From assembly GCA_963707655.1 (NCBI GenBank), contig OY970172.1:960001-1024000 (forward strand): a stretch of DNA of 64,000 bases, written 5' to 3'. The DNA comes from an uncultured bacterium. Lineage in GTDB: Bacteria; Babelota; Babeliae; Babelales; Vermiphilaceae. The translations under genes and the position numbers were made by a program. Position 1 is the stretch's first letter. Each line of letters opens with the position of its first letter. A model generated the notes under the pieces. The model was not told the DNA's origin and did no database searches. It saw only the letters and a list, made by a program, of their open reading frames with translations. Of the stretch, positions 36,006-58,784 are shown in pieces.

Positions 36006-36082
36006 GTGCCCGTAGCTCAGCTGGATAGAGCGACAGACTTCTAATCTGTAGGTCGTAGGTTCGACTCCTACCGGGCACACCA
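36006..36082 (+). tRNA. tRNA-Arg(TCT); integration target
   Basis: GTGCCCG acceptor, anticodon arm ACAGA-CT-TCT-AA-TCTGT, GGTTCGACTCC, encoded CCA. Confidence 0.97.
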
Positions 36083-37537: not shown

Positions 37538-37548
37538 AGCTGTATACC

Positions 37549-37716: not shown

Positions 37717-37800
37717 AAAAAAATCCAATATTTACGAGACATTTTAATAGCTAATGATACAATAAAGATATAAAGAAATAAAGAAATACTTGGGGGTTTT

Positions 37801-38664
37801 GTGAATATATTCAGATATATATCGAATTTATTTGATAAGGGCGTCAATTTAAAGCCCTCTATTGAGAAAAAAATCACTATCAATAATGAACCTGATTCTA
37901 AAGAGACACGCAAAAAGAGTGCTCAAAGGGTCAGAAATATCTATGATCCCTTGTCTACCAAGCCTTATAAGCTAAGTCGTAGCAAAATAGAGCTTTTCAT
38001 GCGTTGTAAGCGTTGTTTTTATATTGATCGTCGATTAGGAGTTGGGCATCCTGACGGATATCCATTTTCTCTAAATATTGCAGTCGATGAACTTTTGAAA
38101 AAAGAATTCGATATTTTTCGTCTAGAACAAAAGCCGCACCCTCTCTGCCTCGAAAATAATGTAAATGCGATTCCATTTAAGCACGAAAACTTAGAAAGCT
38201 GGCGTAAATCGCTCCATGAGGGCGTTCAATACCATGTTCCTAATACAAATCTTCTCATCCATGGTGGCCTTGATGATGTTTGGATTAATCAGGATACTGG
38301 TGAACTTCTAGTCGTTGATTACAAAGCTACCTCAAAAAACGGAGAAATAACTCTAGATGCCGATTGGCAAATTGGTTATAAGCGCCAAGCTGAAATCTAT
38401 CAGTGGCTTTTACGTAAAAATGACTTCACGGTATCTAATACTGCCTATTTTGTTTACTGCAATGGTAAAAAAGACATGCCACTGTTTGATAAAAAACTGC
38501 ACTTTGAGGTTACCTTACTGCCTTATGTAGGGAACGATTCGTGGGTGGAAGAAGCAGTTAATGGAGCTTACAGATGTCTTCAAACTAACACTATCCCTGC
38601 AGCAGAAAAGTCATGTGACTATTGTCAGTATTGGAACGGTGTCACTAACCACTTAATAAAATAA
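37801..38664 (+). CDS. PD-(D/E)XK nuclease (RecB/Cas4-like)
   Basis: LSRSKI..CKRCFY, GGLDDVW, VVDYKAT, QAEIYQWLL, C-terminal CDYC. Confidence 0.85.
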   Translation: MNIFRYISNLFDKGVNLKPSIEKKITINNEPDSKETRKKSAQRVRNIYDPLSTKPYKLSRSKIELFMRCKRCFYIDRRLGVGHPDGYPFSLNIAVDELLKKEFDIFRLEQKPHPLCLENNVNAIPFKHENLESWRKSLHEGVQYHVPNTNLLIHGGLDDVWINQDTGELLVVDYKATSKNGEITLDADWQIGYKRQAEIYQWLLRKNDFTVSNTAYFVYCNGKKDMPLFDKKLHFEVTLLPYVGNDSWVEEAVNGAYRCLQTNTIPAAEKSCDYCQYWNGVTNHLIK

Positions 38665-38699
38665 CCATCAAATTTAAAAGATGTATTGATAAAGTAAAT

Positions 38700-43160: not shown

Positions 43161-44228
43161 TTTTTTAAGCGCAACAATTTCTTCTGGCGCTAAATCGAAT
43201 TCTTTGTTTTTATCTAATGATCTCATTATTTCTCCCTGCCTATATTCATCTACGCTGCCATAGCTGGTGAATGTTGTTAATGGATTATTATGACCTATAT
43301 TTTGACTCCATACCTTAAATTCTTCAGGAGTTTTGCACAACTTGTAACCTAATTGAGCTACGGTGTGACGAAATGAATGCGGATTGTAGTAGGTTAGTCC
43401 AGCATTGTGAAATGCCTCTTCTATCACTTTTCTCAATGATGTAGTTGATTTCCATGGAGTCGAACCAAGCAGCGTCCTGCTGAATTTATCATTAGCGCCC
43501 AGTGACAATGCGGTACAAGGAAATAATGGAGCTTCATCATCAAATAGCTTTTCCTTCTTTAAGAAATTTACCCACTCAATGAAGATTTGCTTAAGGAAAT
43601 CGCCTACAGGAAAAAAGTAGGTAATAATCATCTTGCTGTTTTTTGTTTTTACCTCGTCCGGACGTTGCTCTATGCGTTGCTCGTCCAAAAGTATGTGCTT
43701 AAGTTTGAATGAAGCTACTGCCTGAATTCTTGCGCCACTAATGGCCATAAAAGCTATGAGAGCACGGTTCCTTTTTTGAATCTCAGTTTCTGCCGGCATG
43801 CTTTTTACCACATGTTCTATTTGTTCCAAGGTAGGGTAACGTTTAGGTTTTTGAGTTCTTGCTATTCTGATGTCTTTATCTTGTAATTTGAAATACGCAA
43901 TTTCACATGAGCGTATTCTGCTTCTGTACCCAGGCTGCGTCACCAGCCACTTGAAAAAGTCACTTAGGCTTCTTGTGGCATGTAGCAGGTAGGTTTTACT
44001 GACAAGCGTTTCCGTGCGTTTTGATTTCTTTTGCATAAGATGTTTTTTGAATCCGATAGCGTCATTCTTGTTAAATAACTTGAAGCTTTTAAAGCCTGTG
44101 TATTCCTCATAAATATACAGGTAATTTTGGATGTTAATAGCAGTTGAGCTGCTCTTGCCATTAGCCTCCTTTTCCCATTCCAAATACTTACGTTTAATTC
44201 GTTCGTTTTCAGCGTTATATTTGATCAT
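43146..44228 (-). CDS. Tyrosine recombinase
   Basis: GARIQA, KTK, HSFRH, IGH, TFTSYG catalytic set. Confidence 0.9.
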   Translation of the reverse strand: MIKYNAENERIKRKYLEWEKEANGKSSSTAINIQNYLYIYEEYTGFKSFKLFNKNDAIGFKKHLMQKKSKRTETLVSKTYLLHATRSLSDFFKWLVTQPGYRSRIRSCEIAYFKLQDKDIRIARTQKPKRYPTLEQIEHVVKSMPAETEIQKRNRALIAFMAISGARIQAVASFKLKHILLDEQRIEQRPDEVKTKNSKMIITYFFPVGDFLKQIFIEWVNFLKKEKLFDDEAPLFPCTALSLGANDKFSRTLLGSTPWKSTTSLRKVIEEAFHNAGLTYYNPHSFRHTVAQLGYKLCKTPEEFKVWSQNIGHNNPLTTFTSYGSVDEYRQGEIMRSLDKNKEFDLAPEEIVALKKLLHR

Positions 44229-44240
44229 TTTAGTCTCCTT

Positions 44241-44732
44241 TTATTTGATGGTGGTAGCGGGGGTGTTGTCACACTCTATTAAATTTTTTTGCTCTAGCCC
44301 TTCTATATGGAAAATTTTCGTAAAGGTATCTATTTTTGAAGGCGATATTGTTCTATTGATGCTCGATCCACATATCTCACATATACCAACGAGATTTGTT
44401 CGTTTATTGTTATGGTGAATACGGACTTTGTTATCTTTGGTGTACCTTGCCTTCTGGCATTTGCAGCAGAACAATTGGTTTTCAGCGCAAGGTTTTTTTC
44501 TGCCAGCATTTCTTACACTTAGAAAGTCGATTAAATCTTGTCCCCATATCAAGTACGGTAGTTGATCATCTATTTTCTTGAGCCCCGTCTTTAACCAGTC
44601 GCTAATGGTACCTTTATCAACCTTGAGAAGCTCTTTGATCTCTTCTATGGAATAGGAGTTTGCGCTTCTGATGATTCTTGTATTAAATCTTTTCCGAAAC
44701 TTCTTTACGTTTTTCTGCTTTTTCTTGTACAT
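44241..44732 (-). CDS. Helix-turn-helix protein with C-terminal zinc ribbon
   Basis: YSIEEIKELLKVDKGTISDWLKTGL (excisionase-like HTH); CCKC and CEICG. Confidence 0.75.
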   Translation of the reverse strand: MYKKKQKNVKKFRKRFNTRIIRSANSYSIEEIKELLKVDKGTISDWLKTGLKKIDDQLPYLIWGQDLIDFLSVRNAGRKKPCAENQLFCCKCQKARYTKDNKVRIHHNNKRTNLVGICEICGSSINRTISPSKIDTFTKIFHIEGLEQKNLIECDNTPATTIK

Positions 44733-44863
44733 CTTTCATATCCCACTCGAGCAATAAATCAAAAAGATCAATTAATGGCTGGATATCAGATTTGATTTCT
44801 AGCCTATCTCCTTGCTGAGTTATGCTTTGCTTTTTTATGTCCATCGGTACTACTCAACAAAAT

Positions 44864-45136
44864 TTAGAATGCGCTATTAATGATTGCTTCATATTTGCGT
44901 ATGACAACATCTTCAATTGCTGTCGCAATCTCTTTGTTGATAGGATGAAAAATGGGCATACTACTGTTTAATGTTTTTCGAGTTGGGTAGGTCAACCTAT
45001 AACCACCTTGTGGGCGTGTATATATTCCTATGGAAGCAAAATAAAATAAGCTATCGAACGTGAAGCTTGCAAACGCTACAAGGCCGTCCTTTGGCTTGAG
45101 TGGAATTATTTGTATTTCTGATACCTTGTCTTTCAT
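44864..45136 (-). CDS. SpoVG-family nucleic-acid-binding protein
   Basis: GLVAFASFTFD...YPTRK...IFHPINKE pattern. Confidence 0.75.
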   Translation of the reverse strand: MKDKVSEIQIIPLKPKDGLVAFASFTFDSLFYFASIGIYTRPQGGYRLTYPTRKTLNSSMPIFHPINKEIATAIEDVVIRKYEAIINSAF

Positions 45137-45218
45137 AATCTTTACCTTTTGGGTTAAGGGTTAAGCTTTAACTGAAGACAAGGTAATAAAAAGGGTTCGG
45201 GCCCGGCTGGGCCCAGAA

Positions 45219-46235
45219 TTAACAGAGATATTTTGGATTAATTTGAACAGTATCATCCTTGATAAGAAGAAATTCTGGATGACCCAACTTGGCTACATTC
45301 TTGTTTATGCTACGACAAATCTCATAAATATCCGGACCTTCCTTTGCGTGATCGTTGTTCATAATCTTTTCGCTAATAGTTTCAAATTTTAAGGCTCTTT
45401 TTTTGATAAAGCTGTCGCCAGGAATTAGCATTTTCAAAACGATACGCGAATCACTATTTTTTTTGAAATTCGTTGATCCATCATTAATTTTAAGCTTGCC
45501 ATTATTAGGGTCATAAGAAATTGTGTATTTCACTTTTTCTTGAGTTACAGCTAATTGCCTCTCAAAAAAATCAATCGTATATCTTAAAATACGATTCATA
45601 TGAACTCGCAAATCAGGAATATTTTCTTTCTTTAGTTCTTGCTTGCCTTGACCATAATTGATATAGATGCGTGCTAGCTTATCCCAGCTATACCAAATGC
45701 GAGTTTGTTGAATATCTTCAAGGCGATTTTTTTCGCTATTCCACAAATAGAAACTTGGTGTAAAAATACATTCTTGCACTCTCCCTTCTTCATCTAAAAC
45801 TGCGCTTTTTTTGAGAAGACATTTTGCCTCTTTCGAGTGATTTTCTGCCAATGACCAAACAAAATCTCTTAATATTCTGTATTTAGCTATCATAGGATTA
45901 CTAATTGCCGCCATGTTGCTATCGCGATATAGTTCGAAAGCAAAAACATCATTGAATATAGGGTGGTAGTTTTTGCCATATTTTTTTGTTTGGTAATCCC
46001 TATATTCATAATATGCCAACTCCATTTCATATTCTGCTGCTTCCGTTAGATCTTGTAATAGCTGAGCATTATTTTTTGCTTCCCCGAGTATTTTTGTATT
46101 TATATGCCCCAGGTCGACATTTTTATCGTACTCAGCCATAAAGTCATAGATGAGCAACCCAAATAAGTTAGGATCATCGATCTGATTATTGCAGAGTGAT
46201 TGTAGTTTATTAACATTAGACTGGTTTTGTTGCAT
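45219..46235 (-). CDS. Hypothetical protein with possible C-terminal winged-helix domain
   Basis: 338-aa ORF with GAGG RBS; C-terminal IYEICRSINKNV...VQINPKY resembles a wHTH. Confidence 0.65.
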   Translation of the reverse strand: MQQNQSNVNKLQSLCNNQIDDPNLFGLLIYDFMAEYDKNVDLGHINTKILGEAKNNAQLLQDLTEAAEYEMELAYYEYRDYQTKKYGKNYHPIFNDVFAFELYRDSNMAAISNPMIAKYRILRDFVWSLAENHSKEAKCLLKKSAVLDEEGRVQECIFTPSFYLWNSEKNRLEDIQQTRIWYSWDKLARIYINYGQGKQELKKENIPDLRVHMNRILRYTIDFFERQLAVTQEKVKYTISYDPNNGKLKINDGSTNFKKNSDSRIVLKMLIPGDSFIKKRALKFETISEKIMNNDHAKEGPDIYEICRSINKNVAKLGHPEFLLIKDDTVQINPKYLC

Positions 46236-46339
46236 CTTCTTTACCTCTTAAAATACGTTTTTTATATTCTAATCGGTAAAAGTAGATTCTCTAAGCAAAA
46301 AGTACCTGTTCTATCGCATTTATGTTAGTCTGTTCGAAG

Positions 46340-46374
46340 GTAAAAGTTCTAAAATAGTCCGATAGGGCACACCA
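46340..46374 (+). other. att junction 1 (P arm + tRNA 3' core)
   Basis: GTAAAAGTTCTAAAATAGTCCGATA-GGGCACACCA. Confidence 0.9.
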
Positions 46375-46584
46375 GCCTTCGCTTATTAGTCGCCAAGGCT
46401 ATGGCGGACAGGCCGGGGGCAAGATAGAGCTCGGCGAAAGCCTGAAGAAGCTCGTGAGAGCGAAGACAGGCAAGCTTCGTCTGGCTGCCGCCAGCAACTT
46501 TTTCACCCATTCTTTGCATCTTCATAAATCCTTGGTATATCTACTAAGACTTTTTTTATAGGAATCTGACCTTTAGGGAGAACT
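46372..46584 (+). repeat. Unit leader: nested hairpin repeats + conserved 5' region of the toxin gene (copy 1 of 4)
   Basis: Near-identical copies at 49337-49551 and 52190-52404; shorter copy at 54687-54864; each ends GGGAGAACT-ATG. Confidence 0.92.
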
Positions 46585-48489
46585 ATGAAGATTATCATTC
46601 TGATCAGTATCTTACTACAAATAGTGGCTATCCAAGCGGTATATCCCAATCGAGAGTTGACGACAAACTGGGATACCTCAACGCGAAATCGAGGCATATC
46701 ACAAAATAGTCTTGCTAAGATGAACCGTGCTCAATATATAAAAAATATTGCCGGTATCAACAGCCATTCTTCTTTCACTCCCTCTCACATTACATCCGGA
46801 ACACCTGCATACACGATGCTGCATGAGCCGCACAAATGCGCATCGTGGCAGGGGAGTGACTATTGGAATGCAATTGTCCAGGCATTCGGGCTTAAAGCAT
46901 CAATAGACAAGAATTATTATATTCCGTTCGGACTGCGTGAGTATGGCTATACTAGTGATTCACAGATTTTGTATATTCATGACGACAATATAATCCGCAT
47001 TATGCAGCAGGGGAAACTTTATGATTACGACAATTTCTGGTGCTTTATTAGCCAGTTTGATTCGTATGAATCAACACTGTTGCAACTGTTTAACAATGGC
47101 ACGCAGCGCAGCCAGCTTTCTCAAAAAGCGCGGCAGAAAATGCAACAAGAATGCACTCGCATTACTGAAAAACAACTGACAAAAGAGCGGGAGCAACAGC
47201 AGCGGTATCAGGAAGAATCGGTACGAAAACATTTTCAAGGAGAGCTTCCAGTAATTGAAGATTCAGTTGATGAGCAACAAGAATTGCATGATATTGCCCA
47301 TACATATAATTTGCATAACAAAAATCATTATGAAACGCGTCTGGCTGCCCTTGAAGATGTGGTAAGTAATAGCAGATATACCCGTGACGTGTACACTCTC
47401 GATGATGATGTGATAAGGATTCTGTCACAATCAGAATGCGATGCCAAACAATATACGACCAATTATGGCAATCAATTGCAGCAAGTCATTCACCGTGAAT
47501 GCATCGATATTGTCTCGCAAACAGCGCAACTCTCTGTCCGCTCTCCTCTTTATGATTATAAAAATTCATTAGCTAATTTTACCGATTCGGCGCGTTCATA
47601 TAACCAGGAAGGCTCATCTGGCAAAGCGATGCAAATCAATGATTTTTGCTATGCATTGCTCGATTATGGCTCAGCCATTGTTGAGGGCATTGCCTGCGGT
47701 GTCATTGGTGCAGCCAAAGATATGATTAACCATCCAGTTCAAACAGCATTGTGCGTGGTGGCCAGTGAATATGTGTTGGCCTATCAATTACTTAAAGTCA
47801 CCACCAACCTTGCCTCCATCGGTATATGCTATGCCTTTGATAAAGAAGCCGGCGCGCAACAATGGCATGATTATATTGAGCCAATAACGAATGTGATCAG
47901 CGCTATCAACAATAAAGAGGTAACGCTGCGAAACGGCATTAAAGGAGTTGTTGCCGTTGGCACCGGCATATATGCGCAAGGCAAGATGCTGAAAGGTCTA
48001 AACTCTTTTTATAGCACAACAAAAGCAAAGGCTTTTGAGTTTGTCAAAAACAATCCGTTGGTAACTCCGACTGAATATATGTCCACTCCTGAGGGAGTAT
48101 TATTTAAGGCTATACGCAATGCTCAAGAAGGATTGAATGATATTTCAGGAGAGGTTAAATCAGCATTAGATGGTATCAAAAATGACTTGAAGATGCGTTT
48201 CGAACAGCGAAGCTTGCAGCACATGTTTAGTCGGCATGCAAAGGATTTTGGAATATGCAAAGCGTGGAACAAGGCCACAGCCGTCGAGTTTGAAAAAATA
48301 ATTTTTGACCACATAAACACTGTTCACCCGATTAAAGGTACTTATCGTGGTGTACAAGAGGTTTTGCATTATTTTGATAAAAACAGCGGCCTTAATGTTA
48401 TGACGGATAAGGCCGGATCTCTTATTGGCGGATGGAAGTTAAGTGAAGATCAAATTAAATATCTCTTGTCGACTGGAGCGCTAAAATAA
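46585..48489 (+). CDS. Polymorphic toxin 1: signal peptide, conserved core, colicin D-like tRNase C-terminus
   Basis: C-terminus LQHMFSRHAKDFGI...GTYRG...HYFDKNSGLNV...GGWKL matches the colicin D nuclease pattern (KHAGDFGI, GTYR, SGWK). Confidence 0.85.
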   Translation: MKIIILISILLQIVAIQAVYPNRELTTNWDTSTRNRGISQNSLAKMNRAQYIKNIAGINSHSSFTPSHITSGTPAYTMLHEPHKCASWQGSDYWNAIVQAFGLKASIDKNYYIPFGLREYGYTSDSQILYIHDDNIIRIMQQGKLYDYDNFWCFISQFDSYESTLLQLFNNGTQRSQLSQKARQKMQQECTRITEKQLTKEREQQQRYQEESVRKHFQGELPVIEDSVDEQQELHDIAHTYNLHNKNHYETRLAALEDVVSNSRYTRDVYTLDDDVIRILSQSECDAKQYTTNYGNQLQQVIHRECIDIVSQTAQLSVRSPLYDYKNSLANFTDSARSYNQEGSSGKAMQINDFCYALLDYGSAIVEGIACGVIGAAKDMINHPVQTALCVVASEYVLAYQLLKVTTNLASIGICYAFDKEAGAQQWHDYIEPITNVISAINNKEVTLRNGIKGVVAVGTGIYAQGKMLKGLNSFYSTTKAKAFEFVKNNPLVTPTEYMSTPEGVLFKAIRNAQEGLNDISGEVKSALDGIKNDLKMRFEQRSLQHMFSRHAKDFGICKAWNKATAVEFEKIIFDHINTVHPIKGTYRGVQEVLHYFDKNSGLNVMTDKAGSLIGGWKLSEDQIKYLLSTGALK

Positions 48490-48490
48490 C

Positions 48491-48961
48491 ATGCCTGAAT
48501 ACTTTGACATCTCACTTATCATCGGAAAAAGTGAACTACAAAAACAGCAATTACAGGATTTTTTATTACACACCTTTAATCTACACGAAGAAGAAAACGA
48601 TAGCCTTCGCAATGAAATTTCAGCATTCAAAAATGTTATTCTTACCATCTATGAATCAGAGGAAATTAATTTTATAGAGTTTGGTATAAGTATTCCGAAA
48701 TGTGTTTTTCATAAAAAATCATTTGATAGAGAGTTTAATCCTATTGATTTATTTATTACGCGTTGTCTGAAAGAATGCAAATTCATTCGATTCGCTTTAT
48801 GTAGTTATGAAATGAATGCATACTATATCGGCAAATTACAAAGAATTGAAGATTTCACCCCGCTTTTTTTAGCGCATTTTCCTATCACTTACTCAAAAGA
48901 CCTGCACAATGAGTCATTTTCAAAAATAATTAATACAACGGCGCAGGACATTTTTGTTTAA
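48491..48961 (+). CDS. Candidate immunity protein for toxin 1
   Basis: Starts 1 bp after the toxin stop; small and acidic; positional inference. Confidence 0.7.
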   Translation: MPEYFDISLIIGKSELQKQQLQDFLLHTFNLHEEENDSLRNEISAFKNVILTIYESEEINFIEFGISIPKCVFHKKSFDREFNPIDLFITRCLKECKFIRFALCSYEMNAYYIGKLQRIEDFTPLFLAHFPITYSKDLHNESFSKIINTTAQDIFV

Positions 48962-49002
48962 TGTGTTCAATAAAATGGTTGCTTATGTAGCGAGGTAAGG
49001 CC

Positions 49003-49209
49003 ATGCAAAATAGATTAACGAATGAAGAAGCTTTTAATTCCATGAGGCTTTTTTTGGAAGAATATTACAAACGAACATCATCCGATGATATTGGTTCGCT
49101 GTTGGGGGATTTAATTCTTTTAGCAGACCAAACAACAGCAGATCCAGCCGCTTGGGAAGATTGGATGGACTGCGTTAAAAAAGTTAAAGAGAAAGAATAT
49201 CCATTGTGA
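49003..49209 (+). CDS. Small acidic protein, probable orphan immunity protein
   Basis: GAGG RBS; EEAFNSMRLFLEEYY...ADPAAWEDW. Confidence 0.6.
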   Translation: MQNRLTNEEAFNSMRLFLEEYYKRTSSDDIGSLLGDLILLADQTTADPAAWEDWMDCVKKVKEKEYPL

Positions 49210-49304
49210 TGGAGGCATTTTTGAAGAGCATCTGTATTTAGTAGCTTTAGATACCTATCGCAAAAAGTATTTGCTTAATCTGACTTATGCTCAAGTCTTC
49301 ATAA

Positions 49305-49339
49305 CAAAAGTTGCTGAAATAGTCCGATAGGGCACACCA
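49305..49339 (+). other. att junction 2
   Basis: CAAAAGTTGCTGAAATAGTCCGATA-GGGCACACCA. Confidence 0.9.
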
Positions 49340-49551
49340 CTCTTCGTTTATTCCGCCGTCGCCAAGGCTATGGCGGACAGGCCGGGGGCAAGATAGAGCT
49401 CGGCGAAAGCCTGAAGAAGCTCGTGAGAGCGAAGACAGGCAAGCTTCGTCTGGCTGCCGCCAGCAACTTTTTTACCCATTCTTTGCATCTTCATAAATCC
49501 TTGGTATATCTACTAAGACTTTTTCCAGGAATCTAACTTTCAGGGAGAACT

Positions 49552-51483
49552 ATGAAGATTATTATTTTGATCGGCATTCTACTACAATCAGCAGCTATCC
49601 AAGCCGTGTATCCCACTAGAGAGTTAACAACAAACTGGGATATCTCAACGCGAAGTCGCGGCATATCACAAAATAGTCTTGATCACATGAACCGTCCTCA
49701 ATATGTAAAGGGCATTGCCTGCCTTGACCAGTGTCATGCGAAGCGCGACTCTGCGCGACCATCTTCTATACTTTTCACTAATCCAAAACAATGTGCTTAT
49801 TGGACATCATCTGATTATTATGCCGCTCTAGCCCATGACTATGGCATACCAATTACCATTGAAAACGCAGGGAGCATAGCAGAAGAGTTGCGTTATTACC
49901 ATTGCCCTCATGATCAAAGAAATTTTTTGTATATCCCCGAATACGTCATTACCAATATTATGCATCAAGAGAAGCTGTACGCTCATAAAAATTTCATCGA
50001 TTTTATAAAAAAATTTGATTGGTATGAGGATGAGTTATTGGCTCTGCATGATAAAGTTATGCACAGACACGATTCTTGGAAGTCATTTTTTAAAAAGAAG
50101 TTTTCAGATCAGGTGATAGCTGCACTAGTATCTGAGCGCAATCGAATTGTTAACGCAAGAAGAGACAAAAGAAAGCGCGAAGTTGAAGCCACCGTCATAA
50201 AAAATAATTTTCAAAGCGAGTTACCTGGCATCCAAGGGATGGTCAATGAGCAACAAGAGTTGCATGAGATTGCCAATACATATAACTTGCATAACAAAAA
50301 TCATTATGAAACTCGTCTGGCCGCGCTTGAAGATGTTTTGAACAGCAGAAGCTGCACGCAGCAATCGTACAGCTTCAACAATGATGCATTGACCTTGCTT
50401 TCACAAGTAGGGTGCAGTGCTGAACAGTATAAAACCAATTGCGGCAATCAACTGCAGCAGGTTATTCACCGTGAATGCATCGATATTGTCTCACAGGCAG
50501 CGCAACTTTCTGTGCATTCTCCCCTCTATGATTATAAAAATTCATTAGTTAATTTTACCGATTCGGCTCGTTCATATAATCAGGAAGGCTCGTCTGGCAG
50601 AGCGATGCAAATCAATGATTTTTGCTATGCATTACTCGATTATGGCTCGGCCATTGTTGAGGGCATTGCCTGTGGTGTCATTGGCGCAGCCAAAGATATG
50701 ATTAACCATCCAGTTCAGACAGCGCTGTGCGTAGTGGCCGGTGAATATGTGTTGGCCTATCAATTGCTTAAAGTCACCACTAACCTTGCCTCCATCGGAA
50801 TATCCTATGCCTTTGATAAAGAAGCCGGCGCGCAACAATGGCATGATTACATTGAGCCAATAACGAGCGTGATCAGCGCCATTACCAACAAAGAAATAAC
50901 CCTGCGTGACGGGATTAAAGGAGCAGTCGCTCTTGGCACCGGTATGTATGCGCAAGGCAAGATGCTTAAAGGACTGAACTCTTTTTACAATACAACAAAA
51001 ACAAAAGCTCTTGAATTCGTTAAAAATAATCCTTTGGCAACTCCTGCCGAATACATGACTACTTCTGACGGGGTATTGTTTAAAGCAACACAAGAGTCTT
51101 TATGCAATAAGTCTCAAAAGAACATCGAAAGTCATTTTAAGCAAGAAGTAGGTCAAACACAGACGTCGCTAGGTAGGCCTGCTTATTCTCTTCCTGCCAA
51201 GGTTGAACAAGCAATAGCATATGCCACAAATGATACAAAATTAAAACATTTTTTTGTTAACGAAATGCACGGATTTGAGCCATTGCTTGAGAAAATGAAT
51301 GGTGATCAAAAAAAACTTATCAGAGAAATCGTAAATGCCTTAACCAGAAACGCAATATTACCTACAGCTGGAGAATTCAAAAATATTCCGGTCAGCCTTG
51401 ATGGACAAGTTATACATGTTAGAGGTTTTGTGCATAATGACATTATTAAAATTGGTACTATGTTCATTCCAGAAGGAAAATAA
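49552..51483 (+). CDS. Polymorphic toxin 2 (intact); putative RNase C-terminus
   Basis: Same signal peptide and core as toxin 1; different CT after EGVLFK-like junction (KLKHFF..MHG...VRGFVHNDIIKIGTMFIP). Confidence 0.8.
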   Translation: MKIIILIGILLQSAAIQAVYPTRELTTNWDISTRSRGISQNSLDHMNRPQYVKGIACLDQCHAKRDSARPSSILFTNPKQCAYWTSSDYYAALAHDYGIPITIENAGSIAEELRYYHCPHDQRNFLYIPEYVITNIMHQEKLYAHKNFIDFIKKFDWYEDELLALHDKVMHRHDSWKSFFKKKFSDQVIAALVSERNRIVNARRDKRKREVEATVIKNNFQSELPGIQGMVNEQQELHEIANTYNLHNKNHYETRLAALEDVLNSRSCTQQSYSFNNDALTLLSQVGCSAEQYKTNCGNQLQQVIHRECIDIVSQAAQLSVHSPLYDYKNSLVNFTDSARSYNQEGSSGRAMQINDFCYALLDYGSAIVEGIACGVIGAAKDMINHPVQTALCVVAGEYVLAYQLLKVTTNLASIGISYAFDKEAGAQQWHDYIEPITSVISAITNKEITLRDGIKGAVALGTGMYAQGKMLKGLNSFYNTTKTKALEFVKNNPLATPAEYMTTSDGVLFKATQESLCNKSQKNIESHFKQEVGQTQTSLGRPAYSLPAKVEQAIAYATNDTKLKHFFVNEMHGFEPLLEKMNGDQKKLIREIVNALTRNAILPTAGEFKNIPVSLDGQVIHVRGFVHNDIIKIGTMFIPEGK

Positions 51484-51485
51484 AT

Positions 51486-52040
51486 ATGCATTGGAAACAG
51501 AAGCTTGGAACGCTGGAGAAACAGAAAAAATGGGATGCTGCCATAGAATTAATGATCCATGTTATTGATGAGAATTCTGGGTCTATAGATCCGTATATTT
51601 ATATGAATTATTTACTTATGAATCTTTTGGTAGAAGAAGATTATGACAATGATAAATATAGCTATTACAAATTATTAATAAAAAAATATTTTGACGAATC
51701 TTATGCTAAATTTTCTGATAATGCTGAGTATCTTTTTTTCACTGCTTCCACCGCTCTAATGTCTGAGTGGCATTTTGATATTGATGTAAAAGATTATGAT
51801 GCAATGTTTAAAAAAGCTCTAGTCTTAGAACCCGATAATCTTCTTTATCAAGACTATTATTACACTATGCTAGATAAAACTATCCCAAGCAATAAAAAGG
51901 CCGCAGTAGAATATGCAAAAAAAATACTGGAACCAAAGTCTTCTATTCAAATAATATTGAATTCCAAAGGCGCTATAGGAGAACGCCTTTTGGGATTAAT
52001 GACAAATTGGAGCTTAAGGATTCTTGGCATGAAGCCTTGA
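51486..52040 (+). CDS. Candidate immunity protein for toxin 2
   Basis: Starts 2 bp after the toxin stop; helical; paralogue of 56795-57355, which follows the paralogous CT. Confidence 0.78.
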   Translation: MHWKQKLGTLEKQKKWDAAIELMIHVIDENSGSIDPYIYMNYLLMNLLVEEDYDNDKYSYYKLLIKKYFDESYAKFSDNAEYLFFTASTALMSEWHFDIDVKDYDAMFKKALVLEPDNLLYQDYYYTMLDKTIPSNKKAAVEYAKKILEPKSSIQIILNSKGAIGERLLGLMTNWSLRILGMKP

Positions 52041-52157
52041 GGCTCTTCCAAGCACACCTTAACAAAGTATATAGGGATAAAATATCCTTGATGGCTTTTT
52101 TGCTAATGACCAATATCACCCAAAGACCATATTGCCAAAACTAACGAATTGTCCACA

Positions 52158-52192
52158 GAGAAGTTGCTGAAATAGACCGATAGGGCACACCA
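52158..52192 (+). other. att junction 3
   Basis: GAGAAGTTGCTGAAATAGACCGATA-GGGCACACCA. Confidence 0.9.
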
Positions 52193-52404
52193 CTCTTCGT
52201 TTATTCCGCCGTCGCCAAGGCTATGGCGGACAGGCTGGGGGCAAGATAGAGCTCGGCGAAAGCCTGAAGAAGCTCGTGAGAGCGAAGACAGGCAAGCTTC
52301 GTCTGGCTGCCGCCAGCAACTTTTTTACCCATTCTTTGCATCTTCATAAATCCTTGGTATATCTACTAAGACTTTTTCCAGGAATCTAACTTTCAGGGAG
52401 AACT

Positions 52405-54303
52405 ATGAAGATTATTATTTTGATCGGCATTCTACTACAATCAGCAGCTATCCAAGCCGTGTATCCCACTAGAGAGTTAACAACAAACTGGGATATCTCA
52501 ACGCGAAGTCGCGGCATATCACAAAATAGTCTTGATCACATGAACCGTCCTTAATATGTAAAGGGCATTGCCTGCCTTGACCAGTGTCATGCGAAGCGCG
52601 ACTCTGCGCGACCATCTTCTATACTTTTCACTAATCCAAAACAATGTGCTTATTGGACATCATCTGATTATTATGCCGCTCTAGCCCATGACTATGGCAT
52701 ACCAATTACCATTGAAAACGCAGGGAGCATAGCAGAAGAGTTGCGTTATTACCATTGCCCTCATGATCAAAGAAATTTTTTGTATATCCCCGAATACGTC
52801 ATTACCAATATTATGCATCAAGAGAAGCTGTACGCTCATAAAAATTTCATCGATTTTATAAAAAAATTTGATTGGTATGAGGATGAGTTATTGGCTCTGC
52901 ATGATAAAGTTATGCACAGACACGATTCTTGGAAGTCATTTTTTAAAAAGAAGTTTTCAGATCAGGTGATAGCTGCACTAGTATCTGAGCGCAATCGAAT
53001 TGTTAACGCAAGAAGAGACAAAAGAAAGCGCGAAGTTGAAGCCACCGTCATAAAAAATAATTTTCAAAGCGAGTTACTTGGCATCCAAGGGATGGTCAAT
53101 GAGCAACAAGAGTTGCATGAGATTGCCAATACATATAACTTGCATAACAAAAATCATTATGAAACTCGTCTGGCCGCGCTTGAAGATGTTTTGAACAGCA
53201 GAAGCTGCACGCAGCAATCGTACAGCTTCAACAATGATGCATTGACCTTGCTTTCACAAGTAGGGTGCAGTGCTGAACAGTATAAAACTAATTATGGTAA
53301 TCAATTGCAGCAAGTCATTCACCGTGAATGCATCGATATTGTCTCACAGGCAGCGCAACTTTCTGTGCATTCTCCCCTCTATGATTATAAAAATTCATTA
53401 GTTAATTTTACCGATTCGGCTCGTTCATATAATCAGGAAGGCTCGTCTGGCAGAGCGATGCAAATCAATGATTTTTGCTATGCATTACTCGATTATGGCT
53501 CGGCCATTGTTGAGGGCATTGCCTGTGGTGTCATTGGCGCAGCCAAAGATATGATTAACCATCCAGTTCAGACAGCGCTGTGCGTAGTGGCCGGTGAATA
53601 TGTGTTGGCCTATCAATTGCTTAAAGTCACGACTAACCTTGCCTCCATCGGAATATCCTATGCCTTTGATAAAGAAGCTGGCGAGCAGCAATGGCATGAA
53701 TATATTGAGCCGATAACGAGCGTGATCAGCGCTATCAAAAACAAAGAGCTGACTCTGCGAGATGGCATTAAAGGAGCCGTCACCCTTGGCACCGGTATGT
53801 ATGCGCAAGGCAAGATGCTTAAAGGTCTGAATTCTTTTTACAACACGACAAAAGCAAAAGCTCTTGAATTCGCTAAAAATAATCCGTTGGTCACTCCTTT
53901 TGAGTATATGACCACTCAAGAGGGAGTGTTGTTTAAGGTTACCGATAAAACAAGTAAAACTGGTCCTTGGCAACAAAATGATATCGAATGGATTCCTTAT
54001 GGCCACAAGCACATTGCTAGTAAAAAAATGAGTTGGAAAGATATTCTTCAATTCACAAAAAATGGCCCTGCCAAATATAAACCAGAAATTAATGTTGAAC
54101 TCTTAGAAACAATGGCATGGCAAAAGGGAACAATGATTCCTGGTAAGAACTGGAAAATTTATCAATGTGAAGACATAATTGGTGCAAACAATGGCATTGA
54201 AACTAACTTTATGATAGTAAAAAATAGTATGGCTACAATTCATGGACATCCAATAACCCCGCAAGAATTTAAACAATACATGAATATGATAGGAAAATTA
54301 TGA
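52405..54303 (+). pseudogene. Polymorphic toxin 3, nonsense mutation at codon 50
   Basis: ATG 52405 matches the copy 2 start; CAA->TAA at 52552-52554; rest of frame open; distinct CT (GHKH...GPAKYK...IHGHPIT). Confidence 0.85.
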
Positions 54304-54614
54304 AACTTAATATAAACCTGAATAATGGGATTATTGTCTATGATGAATTTAATATTGATCCCAATCTCCCGCTAAAAGATCAAATTATGGAATTGCAAGA
54401 AGATCTTCTACAAATACAATATGATAATAATGTAGTTATTGACGTTGGATGGTATCCTGAACTTGATCCATCCGGAAGCTTTATTATTAATATAATAAAA
54501 GATTCTGATTGGTCTCATCCTATATATAAAAAAACAGTTAAATTAAAAAATATTGTTGCTGAACTACAAAAAGCAATTGATTTGGCTCTCACATTAAATG
54601 GTCGATCTATCTAA
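54300..54614 (+). CDS. Candidate immunity protein for toxin 3
   Basis: ATGA overlap with toxin stop; acidic; EDLLQ...DVGWYP motif. Confidence 0.78.
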   Translation: MKLNINLNNGIIVYDEFNIDPNLPLKDQIMELQEDLLQIQYDNNVVIDVGWYPELDPSGSFIINIIKDSDWSHPIYKKTVKLKNIVAELQKAIDLALTLNGRSI

Positions 54615-54654
54615 ACACAATTTCTTGACCTGATTGAGAACATCAGCTTCAAAA

Positions 54655-54689
54655 GAAAAGTTGCTGAAATAGACCGATAGGGCACACCA
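54655..54689 (+). other. att junction 4
   Basis: GAAAAGTTGCTGAAATAGACCGATA-GGGCACACCA. Confidence 0.9.
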
Positions 54690-54864
54690 GCCTTCGCTTA
54701 TTCCGTTGTCGCCAAGGCTATGGCTGACATGGCCGGGCAAGAGAAGACTCGGCAAGCTTCGTCTGGCTGCCGCCAGCAACTTTTTTACCCATTCTTTGCA
54801 TCTTCATAAATCCTTGGTATATCTACTAAGACTTTTTCCAGGAATCTAACTTTCAGGGAGAACT

Positions 54865-56788
54865 ATGAAGATTATTATTTTGATCGGCATTCTACTACAA
54901 TCAGCAGCTATCCCAAGCCGTGTATCCCACTAGAGAGTTAACAACAAACTGGGATATCTCAACGCGAAATCGCGGCATATCACAAAATAGTCTTGATCAC
55001 ATGAACCGTCCTCAATATGTAAAGGGCATTGCCTGCCTTGACCAGTGTCATGCGAAGCGCGACTCTGCGCGACCATCTTCTATACTTTTCACTAATCCAA
55101 AACAATGTGCTTATTGGACATCATCTGATTATTATGCCGCTCTAGCCCATGACTATGGCATACCAATTACCATTGAAAACGCAGGGAGCATAGCAGAAGA
55201 GTTGCGTTATTACCATTGCCCTCATGATCAAAGAAATTTTTTGTATATCCCCGAATACGTCATTACCAATATTATGCATCAAGAGAAGCTGTACGCTCAT
55301 AAAAATTTCATCGATTTTATAAAAAAATTTGATTGGTATGAGGATGAGTTATTGGCTCTGCATGATAAAGTTATGCACAGACACGATTCTTGGAAGTCAT
55401 TTTTTAAAAAGAAGTTTTCAGATCAGGTGATAGCTGCACTAGTATCTGAGCGCAATCGAATTGTTAACGCAAGAAGAGACAAAAGAAAGCGCGAAGTTGA
55501 AGCCACCGTCATAAAAAATAATTTTCAAAGCGAGTTACCTGGCATCCAAGGGATGGTCAATGAGCAACAAGAGTTGCATGAGATTGCCAATACATATAAC
55601 TTGCATAACAAAAATCATTATGAAACTCGTCTGGCCGCGCTTGAAGATGTTTTGAACAGCAGAAGCTACACGCAGCAATCGTACAGCTTCAACAATGATG
55701 CATTGACCTTGCTTTCACAAGTAGGGTGCAGTGCTGAACAGTATAAAACTAATTATGGTAATCAATTGCAGCAAGTCATTCACCGTGAATGCATCGATAT
55801 TGTCTCACAGGCAGCGCAACTTTCTGTGCATTCTCCCCTCTATGATTATAAAAATTCATTAGTTAATTTCACCGATTCGGCGCGTTCATATAATCAAGAA
55901 GGCCTGTCTGGCAGAGCGATACAAATCAATGACTTTTGCTACGCATTACTCGATTATGGCTCAGCCATTGTTGAGGGCATTGCCTGTGGTGTCATTGGCG
56001 CAGCCAAAGATATGCTTAACCATCCAGTTCAAACAGCGCTGTGCGTAGTGGCCGGTGAATATGTGTTGGCCTATCAATTGCTTAAAGTCACCACCAACCT
56101 TGTATCTATTGGCATAAGCTATGCTTTTGATAAAGAAGCTGGGGCGCAACAGTGGCATGAATATATTGAACCAATCACCAATGTTATAAGCGCCATTACC
56201 AACAAAAAATTGTCCCTGCGTGACGGCTTTAAAGGAGCCGCCGCCCTTGGCACCGGTATGTATGCGCAAGGCAAGATGCTTAAACGACTGAACTCTTTTT
56301 ACAATACAACAAAAACAAAAGCTCTTGAATTCGTTAAAAATAATCCTTTGGCAACTCCTGCCGAATACATGACTACTTCTGACGGGGTATTGTTTAAAGC
56401 AACACAAGAGTCTTTATGCAATAAGTCTCAAAAAGACATCGAAAGTTATTTTAAACAAGAAGTACCGCAAGGCCAGTCAAACTTGCCTACTTATTCTCTT
56501 CCATCTAAGATTGAACAAGCCGTAAAATATGCTACAACCAATGAAAAACTTGAATATTTTTTTAAAAAAGAAATGCATGGGCTTGAGCCATTGCTAAAAA
56601 CAATGGATAACAACAAAGAAAAAGTTGTTCGTGAAGTTATCGGGTTGTTGTCAATTAACAATGATATGCCTAGATTTGGTAAGTTTGATGGAATACCTAT
56701 AAATATAAATGGATATATTGTTCATGCACGGGGATTTGTTCATGATGATGTTATTAAACTTGGCACTATCTTTATTCCGCAAGGGTAA
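54865..56788 (+). pseudogene. Polymorphic toxin 4, +1 frameshift in the signal peptide
   Basis: ATG 54865; GCTATCCCAAGCC here versus GCTATCCAAGCC in copies 2 and 3 (extra C at ~54912-54914); CT paralogous to toxin 2. Confidence 0.85.
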
Positions 56789-56794
56789 ATAACT

Positions 56795-57355
56795 ATGTCT
56801 TGGAAAGAGAAGCTTAGAACATTAGAGCGACAAAAAGAATGGGACGCTGCTATAGAACTAATGATCCATACCATTAATCACAACCCAGATGACATGGATG
56901 CATATATATATATGAATTATTTACTCATGAATCTTTTGGTAGAGGAAGATCATACTAGCATTGATGAAAACAAGTTTGCTTATTATGAAACGCTGACCAA
57001 GCATTACTTCGATGAGTCTTATGCTAAATTTTCAAATAATGCAGAATATCTTTTCTTCACTGCAACAACAGCTGTCATGTCTGAGTGGTTTTTTGGCATT
57101 GATGTGCCGGACTATGAAGCTATGTTTCAAAAAGCTATGCTTCTCGAGCCCAACAACCTCCTTTATCAAAGAATTTACTATATGGATCTTGATAAAACTA
57201 TCCCTGGTAATAAAAAGGCTGCAATGGAATATGCTAAAAAAATTTTAGATAAAGATTCTCCTATTCAAAAAACATTGAAGTCTAAAGGCGCTGTTGGCGC
57301 GTATTTGCTAGAATTGATGACAAATTCAAGTTTGGAGATGCTCGGCATGAAATAA
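56795..57355 (+). CDS. Candidate immunity protein for toxin 4
   Basis: Intact; shares WDAAIELMIH, YIYMNYLLMNLLVEED, YFDESYAKFS with 51486-52040. Confidence 0.78.
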   Translation: MSWKEKLRTLERQKEWDAAIELMIHTINHNPDDMDAYIYMNYLLMNLLVEEDHTSIDENKFAYYETLTKHYFDESYAKFSNNAEYLFFTATTAVMSEWFFGIDVPDYEAMFQKAMLLEPNNLLYQRIYYMDLDKTIPGNKKAAMEYAKKILDKDSPIQKTLKSKGAVGAYLLELMTNSSLEMLGMK

Positions 57356-57413
57356 CTAATAACTTGTAGCAAAAAGTATCTGCTGATCCTGATTCATGCT
57401 AATCTGGTCAAGT

Positions 57414-57448
57414 AAAAAGTTGCTGAAATAATCCGATAGGGTACACCA
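57414..57448 (+). other. att junction 5 (one mismatch in core)
   Basis: AAAAAGTTGCTGAAATAATCCGATA-GGGTACACCA. Confidence 0.85.
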
Positions 57449-57682
57449 GCTTTCGCTAAAGCTTCAGCTGGCAGACAGGTCGTCTGTACCATTGTAGAAA
57501 AACTTTAATAGTAAATAGCGAAGACGGTCCGAAGAAGCCGCGGGTATAGACGGACTTTTTCCAAAAAAGTAAATCTCTAGCAATTTTTGTCCGTAACTTA
57601 TTAGTCTTACATTGATCAGCAAGGTCACAAAACATCGGCATAATGAACCCTCACATTGTACTTGGATGAGGCATTGTGATCG

Positions 57683-58189
57683 ATGAAAAACTGGCAACAA
57701 CACTCTATACTTGAGGTCTTATGTATGTTGATACGCATTAATGCTTTTACCCAAAACCATAGTAATACAATACCTAAAAAATATACCTGTGATGGTGAAG
57801 GAATTTCCCCCGAAATTAGTTGGGATGAAGTACCAGAAAAAACAGAAAGCTTTGCGCTTATTATGGAAGGTCTTGATGTTCCCAATAGAAGCAATGCTTT
57901 GGTGTTATGGGTTATCTACAATATTCCTGGCGCTCTACGAACCATTGCCTCAAACTCTATTCCCGAACAAGCTAAAGTTGGCATTAATGATTTGGGGAAA
58001 AAGCGATATAGCGCCCCATGCCCAAAACCGGGACCGCATCCTCAAAAATATCAAATTACCTTATATGCTCTCGATACAACATTGATATTCTTGCCCGATG
58101 AGACAACAAAGGAAGATTTAGTGAAAGCCATGAAAAAGCATGTTTTGGCAACAGCAGAAAATATTGGTTTTTGTGAAAGACATGGATAA
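57683..58189 (+). CDS. YbhB/YbcL (PEBP) family protein
   Basis: IPKKYTCDGEGISP, SFALIM, WVIYNIP, YSAPCP, LYALD; usual DPD and HW motifs altered; start uncertain. Confidence 0.85.
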   Translation: MKNWQQHSILEVLCMLIRINAFTQNHSNTIPKKYTCDGEGISPEISWDEVPEKTESFALIMEGLDVPNRSNALVLWVIYNIPGALRTIASNSIPEQAKVGINDLGKKRYSAPCPKPGPHPQKYQITLYALDTTLIFLPDETTKEDLVKAMKKHVLATAENIGFCERHG

Positions 58190-58226
58190 ATTGCATCTAA
58201 GTTGAGAGTGCTAAGAAGGCTGTTGT

Positions 58227-58784
58227 TTACCTATTGGTATCCACTGAGTACCCAAAAGCTCTTAATATATCTTTGGTCTGAGTTTCTGGTGTAACATTAT
58301 CAATAATGTATACGATAATTCCTTGCTCATTAATCAAAAAAGATTTGCGCAACGCATAGAGGTTGCCCATTGCATGTTGATCAGTGCCATACATATGCGC
58401 GACTTCATGCTTCATATCTGATAATAAGATGAATGGGAGTCTTTCTTGTTCTTTAAATTTTTTGTGTGATTCAGGAGAATCATAGCTGACCCCAATGACT
58501 ACGATGTCATGTTGCTTGAACTGATCAAAAGAATTGCGCAACTCGCATGCCTCTTTCGTACAGCCCGGCGTTCCATCTTTTGGATAAAAATAGAGAACTA
58601 TTTTTCTGCCCTTGAATGAGGCAAGTGAGCGTGAAGCTCCTGTTTCATCAGGTAGGGTGAATAAAGGAGCCGCATCACCAACTTTAACTTTTTCAGCCGG
58701 TGTACGTTTGTATTTCCCCAACATAAAAATACAGGCTATTGCAATCAAGCCCAAGATAATGAGCGACATTAAAAGAGTATTCAT
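58227..58784 (-). CDS. bcp: BCP/PrxQ peroxiredoxin with N-terminal membrane anchor
   Basis: VLYFYPKDGTPGCTKEAC, GVSYD, LPFILLSD. Confidence 0.9.
   Translation of the reverse strand: MNTLLMSLIILGLIAIACIFMLGKYKRTPAEKVKVGDAAPLFTLPDETGASRSLASFKGRKIVLYFYPKDGTPGCTKEACELRNSFDQFKQHDIVVIGVSYDSPESHKKFKEQERLPFILLSDMKHEVAHMYGTDQHAMGNLYALRKSFLINEQGIIVYIIDNVTPETQTKDILRAFGYSVDTNR

Follow-up and report, generated by a model that had tools for sequence, protein, structure and literature searches.

We analyzed a stretch of 64,000 nucleotides (the window; positions 960,001 to 1,024,000 of contig OY970172.1, assembly GCA_963707655.1) from an uncultured bacterium of the Vermiphilaceae, in which the segment at 46.3-57.5 kb carries a tandem array of predicted secreted toxin genes. 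The window is part of a single contig of 1,091,075 bp, with a completeness of 88.6% by marker genes. The array consists of four head-to-tail units on the forward strand, each made of a non-coding element of about 240-300 nucleotides (nt), a gene of about 1.9 kb and a small gene. The first toxin gene, c1 (46585..48489), is intact and encodes 634 amino acids (aa), of which residues 1-18 resemble a signal peptide; its candidate immunity gene (48491..48961; 156 aa) starts 1 nt past the toxin stop and has no family match. The second toxin gene, c2 (49552..51483; 643 aa), is also intact and is followed by the partner gene of its tail, Imm2 (51486..52040; 184 aa). The third, c3 (52405..54303), has an in-frame TAA at 52552-52554 (codon 50), as read directly from the sequence, and its stop is overlapped by 4 nt by the Imm3 candidate (54300..54614; 104 aa). 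The fourth, c4 (54865..56788), has one C too many near 54912 in the signal-peptide region (atcccaagcc against atccaagcc), which shifts the frame within the signal-peptide codons and leaves an open frame of 622 aa from a GTG at 54920; it is followed by Imm4 (56795..57355; 186 aa), which is 70-71% identical to Imm2. Only the open parts of c3 and c4 were used in the analyses. The sequence-only reading had described four paralogues of about 630-640 aa; the four paralogous units were found, but only c1 and c2 are intact. A fifth copy, c5, lies at 316142 in the same genome with an ORF (open reading frame) of 131 aa next to it, and a paralogue of only 23% identity (L006), with a lipobox-like LFITAC and its own downstream ORF, lies at 698231. 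The window's own genome gave six family matches in all.

The proteins of the four copies were 54-58% identical to c1, with a mean column identity of 74%. All four share the N-terminus MKIIILI.ILLQ..AIQA followed by VYP. It is shaped like a Sec signal peptide, with MK, then a hydrophobic stretch and AIQA, and the Kyte-Doolittle mean over 19-aa windows reached up to 1.99 there, in keeping with the signal peptide claimed earlier. By a crude hydropathy test, a hydrophobic N-terminal window was also present in 99 of 122 near-full-length relatives. What the copies share extends over about 490 aa and falls into a variable N-domain (residues ~20-225) and a near-identical helical module of about 290 aa (residues ~225-515); it is longer than the core of about 300 aa proposed from the sequence. 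In c2, the N-domain spans approximately aa 68-230, the helical module aa 230-515 and the tail, CT2, aa 545-643. The N-domain differs between copies within one genome, while the module is nearly invariant. Within the module, a hairpin at aa 360-410 (50629-50781) is formed by two helices with Kyte-Doolittle means of 1.25-1.41 and KDMINHP between them, and in an alignment of 29 proteins it was the most conserved stretch across the family. The segment GIACGVIGAAKDMINHPVQTALCVVA, which had been taken for a hydrophobic stretch of the core, is invariant in all four window copies, but it is only semi-hydrophobic, with charged D, E, K and H inside the helices. The AlphaFold2 model of c2 had a mean predicted local distance difference test score (pLDDT) of 67.8, with good values at aa 68-370, low values at 370-421 and 496-549, and values of 70-85 in the tail. 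When residues 60-235 of the N-domain were modelled alone, the pLDDT was 87.4 and the model showed an alpha/beta domain with a terminal helix of about 50 residues.

The shared region ends at a junction with the consensus NNPLxxPExYMxTPEGxLxK, which in c1 reads NNPLVTPTEYMSTPEGVLFK (48049-48108) and in c2 lies at 51025-51084. The abrupt end of homology after NPL.TP.EYM.T..GVLFK, as first read by eye, was seen both in the protein alignment and as a drop in DNA identity. Across the junction, DNA identity fell from 0.72-0.96 to 0.10-0.37 between c1 and c2, and from 0.72-1.00 to 0.38-0.47 between c2 and c3. Starting at the upstream element and as far as about 50400 (c2 coordinates), c2, c3 and c4 are about 100% identical in DNA; the identity then decays toward the junction and is lost beyond it; the exception is c2 against c4, in which tails and downstream genes are still 52-81% identical. 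Between c1 and c2, identity was 78-96% in the 3' half of the conserved region and in the upstream element, and 34-56% in the N-domain (residues ~20-225). The pattern of identity suggests that the array evolves through duplication and recombination. The window held no promoterless cassette of a toxin tip alone; its tandem copies are full-length, and 5' lesions silence two of them. Family-wide, the junction takes the form [YF][LM]xTPEGxLxK; the pattern [YFL][MLIV]xT[PSA][ED]G was found in 92 of 165 collected family proteins, with a median of 129 residues beyond it, and the tails of the window and genome copies are about 110-130 aa long.

The tails fall into distinct types. CT1, the tail of c1, matched the colicin D tRNase domain over its full length (PF11429, aa 544-626; E 5.7e-22 and 78.3 bits, where the cut-off is 25, covering profile positions 2-83 of 84), and such activity is predicted for it. 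A profile of CT3, built from c3 and eight relatives, matched residues 1425-1526 of PDB entry 8qjc_A (E 3e-40), which is the C-terminal toxin of a PAAR-linked Rhs protein of Salmonella bongori's type VI secretion system (T6SS). The motifs KH, AKY and HGH are conserved in c3 at H1437, K1458, H1515 and H1517 of 8qjc_A, positions named in the available text of the preprint (10.1101/2024.02.26.582050). According to the same text, recombinant production of the S. bongori toxin succeeded only with its immunity protein co-expressed, and its RNase fold and active-site residues are predictions. CT5, the tail of the fifth copy, is Ntox17 (PF15524, E 4.3e-28). CT2 and CT4 are uncatalogued and 55% identical to each other, and CT2-type tails also occurred on proteins in which the conserved module was not detected. 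Three unrelated tail types had been claimed; no sequence relationship indeed links the tails of c1, of c2 with c4, and of c3, but wherever a tail could be named it was an RNase-type or known polymorphic-toxin domain. Among the 165 family proteins, 33 had a Pfam toxin domain, always C-terminal: EndoU_bacteria in 11, Ntox17 in 9, Ntox21 in 8, Ntox35 in 2, and Colicin_D, Cytotoxic (colicin E3 type) and Ribonuclease (barnase type) in one each. A toxin domain was also present in 3 of 13 further locus proteins (EndoU in two, Ntox21 in one). EndoU, Ntox21 and Ntox35 are classed as BECR-fold RNases by Zhang et al. (2012; PMC3482391); Ntox17 is not called an RNase here because the available text of that paper describes it only as 'mostly beta'.

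The downstream genes were examined for 34 distinct toxins from the window, its own genome and related loci, after removal of duplicate loci and of rows that stopped short of the junction. An ORF of at least 60 aa started between -34 and +101 nt from the stop codon in 33 of the 34. These 33 toxins fell into 14 tail clusters and 17 downstream-gene clusters. When loci were compared pairwise, 27 pairs had both the same tail and the same downstream family, 8 had the same tail only, none had the same downstream family only and 493 had neither, in counts that include non-independent kin. In the window, each tail type has its own adjacent small gene, as had been noted from the sequence: 48491-48961 for c1, 51486-52040 together with 56795-57355 for c2 and c4, and 54300-54614 for c3. 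The CT3-type tail was paired with the Imm3 type in a further locus (L032) too. The downstream gene of c1 had no match in Pfam, the colicin D immunity family included. Relatives of Imm2 were found in 14 of 261 genomes of the phylum, often in tandem (for example three consecutive copies in G213, two each in G199 and G101, and several in G200), and in 9 of the 14 loci examined a CT2-like stretch was present in an ORF beside the Imm2 homologue; in the available sequence of 5 of those 9, the module was not detected. We also predicted the complex of CT2 (aa 540-643) with Imm2. The ipSAE values were 0.56, 0.72 and 0.70, with a median of 0.70, while the best of three controls gave 0.02; the mark of 0.70 was reached by 116 of 157 solved complexes and by 2 of 215 mismatched pairs, a calibration that holds roughly for a model made on small custom alignments (13 and 16 rows). 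The runs shared at least 82% of contacts, the pLDDT of the partner was 83-85, and the modelled interface included the nearly invariant residues H566, R624, G625, G635 and T636 of CT2. The model supports binding of CT2 by Imm2, and the downstream genes appear to behave as immunity genes that co-vary with the tail type. A 68-aa ORF at 49003-49209, between the downstream gene of c1 and the next element, had no family match and might be an orphan immunity-like gene.

The two lesions were checked on 52350-55050 against Logan contigs of four soil and peat metagenome runs (X1, X2, X3 and X7); the remaining 16 runs on the list, each with a small share, were left out. A contig of 182 nt from X2 (record 13) matched 54751-54932 without gaps, the extra C of c4 included; because the X2 study differs from the X1 study, the extra C has now been seen a second time. 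The X1 contig without the extra C bears upstream sequence of the c2/c3 type and is therefore uninformative on c4. At position 52552 the X3 contig reads C, possibly from another copy, and the X1 and X2 contigs start at 52556 and 52553, so that the TAA was neither confirmed nor refuted by the metagenome contigs. As assembled, c3 and c4 appear to be currently silenced by these 5' lesions.

The distribution of the family was then determined. A search of 1.84 billion representatives with a hidden Markov model (HMM) returned 808, 547 and 212 clusters at E<=1e-3, 1e-10 and 1e-30, respectively, and a word-based search gave 29 relatives. Since the gene family comprises 808 representative clusters, the observed pattern is far beyond chance. 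In the phylum, 97 of 261 genomes matched at E<=1e-5 (72 of 189 among the high-quality genomes), many with several copies, a tally that takes in partial matches in larger proteins. Some of these matches spanned only model positions ~150-375 inside proteins of 700-1500 aa. A pattern scan of species-representative genomes returned 10 loci, assigned to Candidatus Dependentiae, Candidatus Babeliales or unclassified metagenome-assembled genomes (MAGs), apart from one labelled Pseudomonadota, whose genome (G200) and that of the window belong to one family. The relative L010 is the same record as G251, which falls in that family as well. The host had been guessed to be an intracellular parasite of protists, which fits the named relatives, Candidatus Dependentiae or Babeliales MAGs. 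The first half of the conserved module (~150-375) was also observed in phylum proteins of 1000-2100 aa with no other Pfam match (L043, L045, P0049, P0050, P0089, P0092 and P0158), and the module is therefore part of a wider superfamily.

The conserved region was compared with known families by hmmscan, at E up to 0.1-1 for the window proteins and at 1e-4 for the 165 relatives. In the toxins of the window and its own genome, Pfam and NCBIfam matched only the colicin D tail of c1 and the Ntox17 tail of c5. Every Pfam match on the 165 relatives was C-terminal, except for PT-HINT upstream of the module in P0092 and P0104; in P0104 the order is HINT (97-172), module (424-772) and Ntox21 (788-845). 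Models for RHS, filamentous haemagglutinin, LXG, PAAR, VENN and MafB gave no match in the window proteins or the 165 relatives. For the first five, the Pfam search thus bore out their reported absence, and PT-HINT in 2 of the 165 was the sole exception. By sequence HMMs, PF06255 (MAFB-N/DUF1020) was not listed for either set, and the PT-TG model (PF14449) had no match in the window's own genome at E<=10, while the positive control matched in B. subtilis. Family profiles searched against PDB sequences left the conserved region unmatched beyond a TPR-like hairpin at aa ~300-350 (kinesin-light-chain-like repeats, 4y6w and 4y6c; E 0.005-0.13), which was read as a generic helical hairpin and set aside. 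Foldseek against the PDB gave only weak helical matches (best E 0.095 for the full c2 model and 0.2 for the N-domain model), none of which explains the conserved region. VIA-align with both models likewise gave only weak helical matches; neither search in itself shows a novel fold. In a protein-language-model search the nearest clusters were PT-TG, EndoU and MafB at 0.82-0.84, with PT-TG at 0.84, a range that shuffled proteins reach one third of the time; the PT-TG and MafB leads from these scores were dropped, as the HMMs gave no match in the genome or the 165 relatives.

Judged by sequence comparison, the proteins thus form a large polymorphic toxin family of the Dependentiae that is not catalogued in Pfam or NCBIfam. 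We consider it probable that the locus is made up of polymorphic toxin/immunity modules, arranged in tandem, of this family, which is spread across the Dependentiae (Babeliales). The MafB-like architecture proposed earlier was recovered in all its parts, namely a signal peptide, a conserved N-terminal region, an abrupt switch, a variable toxin tail and a cognate downstream gene. Several observations weigh against this reading. Two of the four copies are broken, and the array may be decaying. The signal peptide was called by eye and hydropathy only, and the confidence of the AlphaFold2 model is low exactly across the hairpin (aa 370-421). No tail was identified in 132 of the 165 family members, and no tail directed at the cell wall or at DNA was present among those identified, a set that would also suit a eukaryotic cytoplasm. 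The larger proteins in the phylum tally are perhaps not toxins, and the CT2-Imm2 model has the limits given with its scores. Moreover, an immunity gene is no proof of a bacterial target, as an exported RNase needs an intracellular inhibitor in any case (barnase and barstar).

The family was compared with described systems. Polymorphic toxins exported by Sec or the type II secretion system (T2SS), with a signal peptide and a lineage-specific conserved domain (MAFB-N, Microscilla-N, APD1/APD2), were described in 2012, and more such domains were predicted (Zhang et al., PMC3482391). The Dependentiae family fits this kind and is a lineage-wide example with its own N-terminal domain. As in polymorphic toxin systems generally (Zhang/Aravind 2012), a conserved N-terminal region is combined with diverse, interchangeable C-terminal toxins, and adjacency, co-variation and the complex model point to a tail-specific immunity gene directly downstream. 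With MafB of Neisseria the family shares the signal peptide, the lineage-specific N-domain, the abrupt switch, the downstream immunity gene and the presence of several loci per genome. In the available text of PMC3482391, the export route of MafB beyond Sec is likewise not established, and EndoU, Ntox21, Ntox35 and Ntox17, tail families common to both, are listed with MafB-N. However, the Dependentiae toxins had no PF06255 match by hmmscan, and their copies have no mafA-like lipoprotein gene; no same-strand ORF lies upstream of the four copies, and an element of ~240-300 nt derived from tRNA-Arg is found there instead. The N-terminal region is also longer (~490 aa) and in two parts, and the family spans a phylum, in contrast to one genus for MafB. 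APD1/APD2 of Amoebophilus asiaticus and Microscilla-N, which were compared by description only, also have a lineage-specific N-domain after the signal peptide and polymorphic C-termini, and the host of APD1/2 is likewise an intracellular bacterium, of amoebae (PMC3482391). The APD proteins differ in having a lipobox and eukaryote-directed domains (F-box, U-box, Otu) and, as far as the available text of that paper goes, in being deployed in parallel without toxin/immunity cassettes, whereas in the Dependentiae family the tail is a small toxin of RNase type and its downstream gene co-varies with it.

Nuclease colicins and S-type bacteriocins, as diffusible protein toxins, resemble the family in combining uptake domains with a small C-terminal RNase, which a tightly binding immunity protein from a gene just downstream neutralises, and CT1 is itself a colicin D domain. 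Colicins, however, are not known to carry a signal peptide, and lysis proteins bring about their release. The Dependentiae N-terminal regions had no match to colicin T or R domains. In Rhs and CdiA proteins the switch point is likewise marked by a conserved motif, and PT-HINT is present in 2 of the 165 relatives, but the window proteins and the 165 relatives have no YD repeats, PAAR, TPS, filamentous haemagglutinin or VENN.

In the mechanism that we propose for the toxin/immunity modules, the immunity protein would neutralise the RNase in the cytoplasm of the producer, and the toxin would be exported by Sec and leave the periplasm through type II machinery or vesicles. The variable N-domain would then bind a component of the target surface, the helical module with its semi-hydrophobic hairpin would carry the small RNase across the target membrane, and in the cytoplasm of the target the RNase would cut tRNA or rRNA. 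Two secretin genes of the GspD type are present in the genome, and the models of VipB (T6SS sheath), VirB4 and TolC-type OEP had no match in it; TpsB was not searched. T2SS components and two gspD copies are reported for all TM6 genomes studied by Yeoh et al. (PMC4776705), and for the cultured member C. destructans the available text of Deeg et al. (PMC6561590) reports Sec export, signal peptides on 44% of coding sequences and budding vesicles. We infer that the N-terminal region acts as a delivery domain. Its position, its conservation and the analogy with nuclease colicins suggest that the N-domain may bind the target and that the module with the hairpin may move the RNase across the membrane. 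Such a split between binding and translocation is suggested because the N-domain varies between copies, while the module is nearly invariant and, in two long relatives, stays with the toxin downstream of PT-HINT.

Within this explanation, the balance tips slightly toward a competing strain of the same lineage in a shared protist host as the target; rival bacteria are favoured because tail/immunity pairs co-diversify and immunity genes occur in tandem arrays. The exported RNases could instead be host-directed effectors that act on the cytoplasmic RNA of the protist, by translation shutdown or nucleotide release, with the downstream proteins shielding the producer before export. We regard this as unlikely, even though Dependentiae are obligate intracellular parasites, secreted nucleases have been proposed as host-degrading effectors in C. 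destructans (PMC6561590), and the identified tails are RNase families and Ntox17, none of which requires a bacterial cell wall or chromosome. Such effectors would leave the co-diversification of tails and immunity genes to be explained (14 tail clusters in 33 toxins, with 0 cross-pairings against 493 pairs different in both), as well as the immunity paralogues in tandem arrays. Antibacterial systems, moreover, have such tails too, namely colicin D and the T6SS Rhs toxin of S. bongori. APD1/APD2 of Amoebophilus, which have the same layout, are read as host effectors, but the available text of PMC3482391 describes them without the serial pattern of toxin/immunity cassettes. A dual target, both bacteria and host, may be compatible with these points against host-directed effectors.

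It is quite improbable that the proteins stay in the envelope of the producer through the semi-hydrophobic hairpin, either as surface toxins that act on contact or as selfish addiction modules with a stabilising effect on the island. The two moderately hydrophobic helices at aa 360-410 would allow such retention, but their hydropathy is under the usual transmembrane values and charged residues lie within them. The lipobox-like LFITAC of the distant paralogue L006 speaks for retention, as does the surface anchoring that Zhang et al. (PMC3482391) favour for lineage-specific N-domains. For an addiction module, the place of the cassettes in an accessory island beside recombinases, bounded by tRNA-Arg-derived repeats, would be suitable; a signal peptide and an N-terminal region of 500 aa would, however, be superfluous, and the family is phylum-wide in varied genomic contexts. 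It is hardly to be expected, either, that the conserved region belongs to an already described domain of the pre-toxin or N-terminal kind (such as MafB-N or PT-TG) and has diverged so far that the HMMs miss it, since the nearness of PT-TG, EndoU and MafB in the language-model search stands against the silence of Pfam and NCBIfam on the region in the window proteins and 165 relatives, the silent PT-TG model in the genome, a PDB search yielding only the TPR-like hairpin, and the confinement of MafB-N to Neisseria according to Zhang et al. (PMC3482391).

A full-text literature search returned, among the matches listed and with supplements outside its coverage, no paper that links the Dependentiae (TM6, Babela, Vermiphilus, Babeliales, Chromulinavorax) with polymorphic toxins, and the word 'toxin' is absent from the available text of the comparative-genomics and isolate papers on the Dependentiae (PMC4776705, PMC6561590). 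Dependentiae are ubiquitous, almost uncultured parasites of protists with genomes of about 1 Mb. This genome devotes five toxin genes of about 1.9 kb, with their immunity genes, to the system, and more than one third of the phylum genomes carry the family; this argues that a large and so far unstudied share of their biology consists of antagonism among parasites in the same host cell or of an attack on the host by RNases. The conserved module belongs to a large, well-sampled family (808 clusters) without known fold or function, and if it does translocate RNases across membranes, it would represent a new principle of protein delivery. The family is, in addition, a source of many toxin/immunity pairs still to be characterised, CT2/Imm2 among them.

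The non-coding elements that precede the toxin genes each contain the 16-mer CCGATAGGGCACACCA or a close variant. In copy 1 (46288..46584) the 16-mer lies at 46359-46374; this copy also has a GC-rich trailer and, at 46481-46494, a hairpin that resembles a terminator, and its last ~90 nt end in AGGGAGAA directly before the ATG. Copy 2 (49253..49551) has the 16-mer at 49324-49339, copy 3 (52161..52404) at 52177-52192, and copy 4 (54621..54864), which has an internal deletion, at 54674-54689; a terminal partial element (57362..57455) with a variant 16-mer (57433-57448) closes the array. All of them lie on the forward strand. The RNA of copy 2 had a predicted minimum free energy of -90.5 kcal/mol (z -4.38), and 0 of 200 shuffles were as stable. 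The fold (49300-49560, with copies at 46.3, 52.2 and 54.6 kb) has a long-range stem AAAGTTGCTG...CAGCAACTTTTTT around GC-rich hairpins, and Rfam searched on 45000-58500 at E<=1 had no family for the element. A promoter scan gave 38 sites against a shuffled expectation of 37.3 and listed none in the 90 nt before the ATGs; the motif TTGCAT..TGGTATATC that can be seen there by eye was not supported by it.

The 16-mer, allowing up to 2 mismatches, occurs at seven sites in the genome, all on the forward strand; five of them delimit the four units of the window, and the fifth copy lies between the other two (315546 and 318552). It matches the 3' end of tRNA-Arg genes, and the sequence past it resembles the trailers of tRNA-Arg(TCG) at 312098 and tRNA-Arg(CCT) at 324311, the genes that flank the region of the fifth copy. 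In G251 the corresponding pair of tRNA-Arg genes is adjacent and immediately precedes a toxin gene. Among 28 loci from other genomes, most of them with flanks of only 1.5 kb, 3 had tRNA-Arg genes. These data suggest that the cassettes arose or move at tRNA-Arg genes, and the toxin units sit in what appear to be tRNA-Arg-associated accessory islands. A more far-reaching idea, which we hold only tentatively and consider rather doubtful, is that the module with the hairpin and the TPEG junction would be a self-contained and hitherto unrecognised membrane-translocation device for small RNases across the Dependentiae, which in the short form would work once Sec/T2SS export is complete and in giant proteins once PT-HINT has cut itself, and that the units would be mobile cassettes with boundaries derived from tRNA-Arg 3' ends, so that tRNA-Arg genes would collect an arsenal for competition inside protist cells.

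An integron-like array, with a divergent tyrosine integrase and structured repeats between cassettes, was considered and rejected: the integrase matched only the generic Phage_integrase family, and the repeats are better explained as the 3' end of tRNA-Arg with its trailer. In addition, the inverted repeats AAAGTTGCTG / CAGCAAC misfit what we take to be the attC core consensus.

Upstream of the array, an island at 36006-46235 starts at a tRNA-Arg(TCT) gene (36006..36082, forward strand, ARAGORN), whose 3' end, ..TCCTACCGGGCACACCA, resembles the 16-mer that bounds the cassettes. According to Pfam, the island encodes a serine recombinase (36068-37537, reverse strand), whose gene overlaps the 3' end of the tRNA gene, a PD-(D/E)XK nuclease (37801-38664, forward strand), a helicase of 1486 aa with 12 HA-domain stretches (38700-43160, forward strand) and a tyrosine integrase (43146-44228, reverse strand). 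It also contains a SpoVG-like gene and two ORFs of 163 and 338 aa without significant family match, and housekeeping genes lie on both sides of the whole region.

The accessory region of the fifth copy, flanked by tRNA-Arg genes, contains a gene for a ParE-family toxin (L067 2391-2675, genome ~313.9 kb) and one for an ankyrin/beta-propeller (DUF5122) protein. No recombinase was present among the 9 ORFs scanned there, and mobility of that island is therefore unsupported. Between the left 16-mer and the fifth copy lies a GIY-YIG nuclease gene (L005 1080-1445, genome ~315.7 kb; PF01541, E 2.1e-17), whose 3' end runs into the shared upstream element. Another partial copy of the element was observed at genome positions 110944-111073. 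In the window, 1.7 kb past the array, the segment 59030-59135 carries the scar of a lost unit, with a degenerate element start, a ribosome-binding site, the first six toxin codons (MKIIIL) and a stop.

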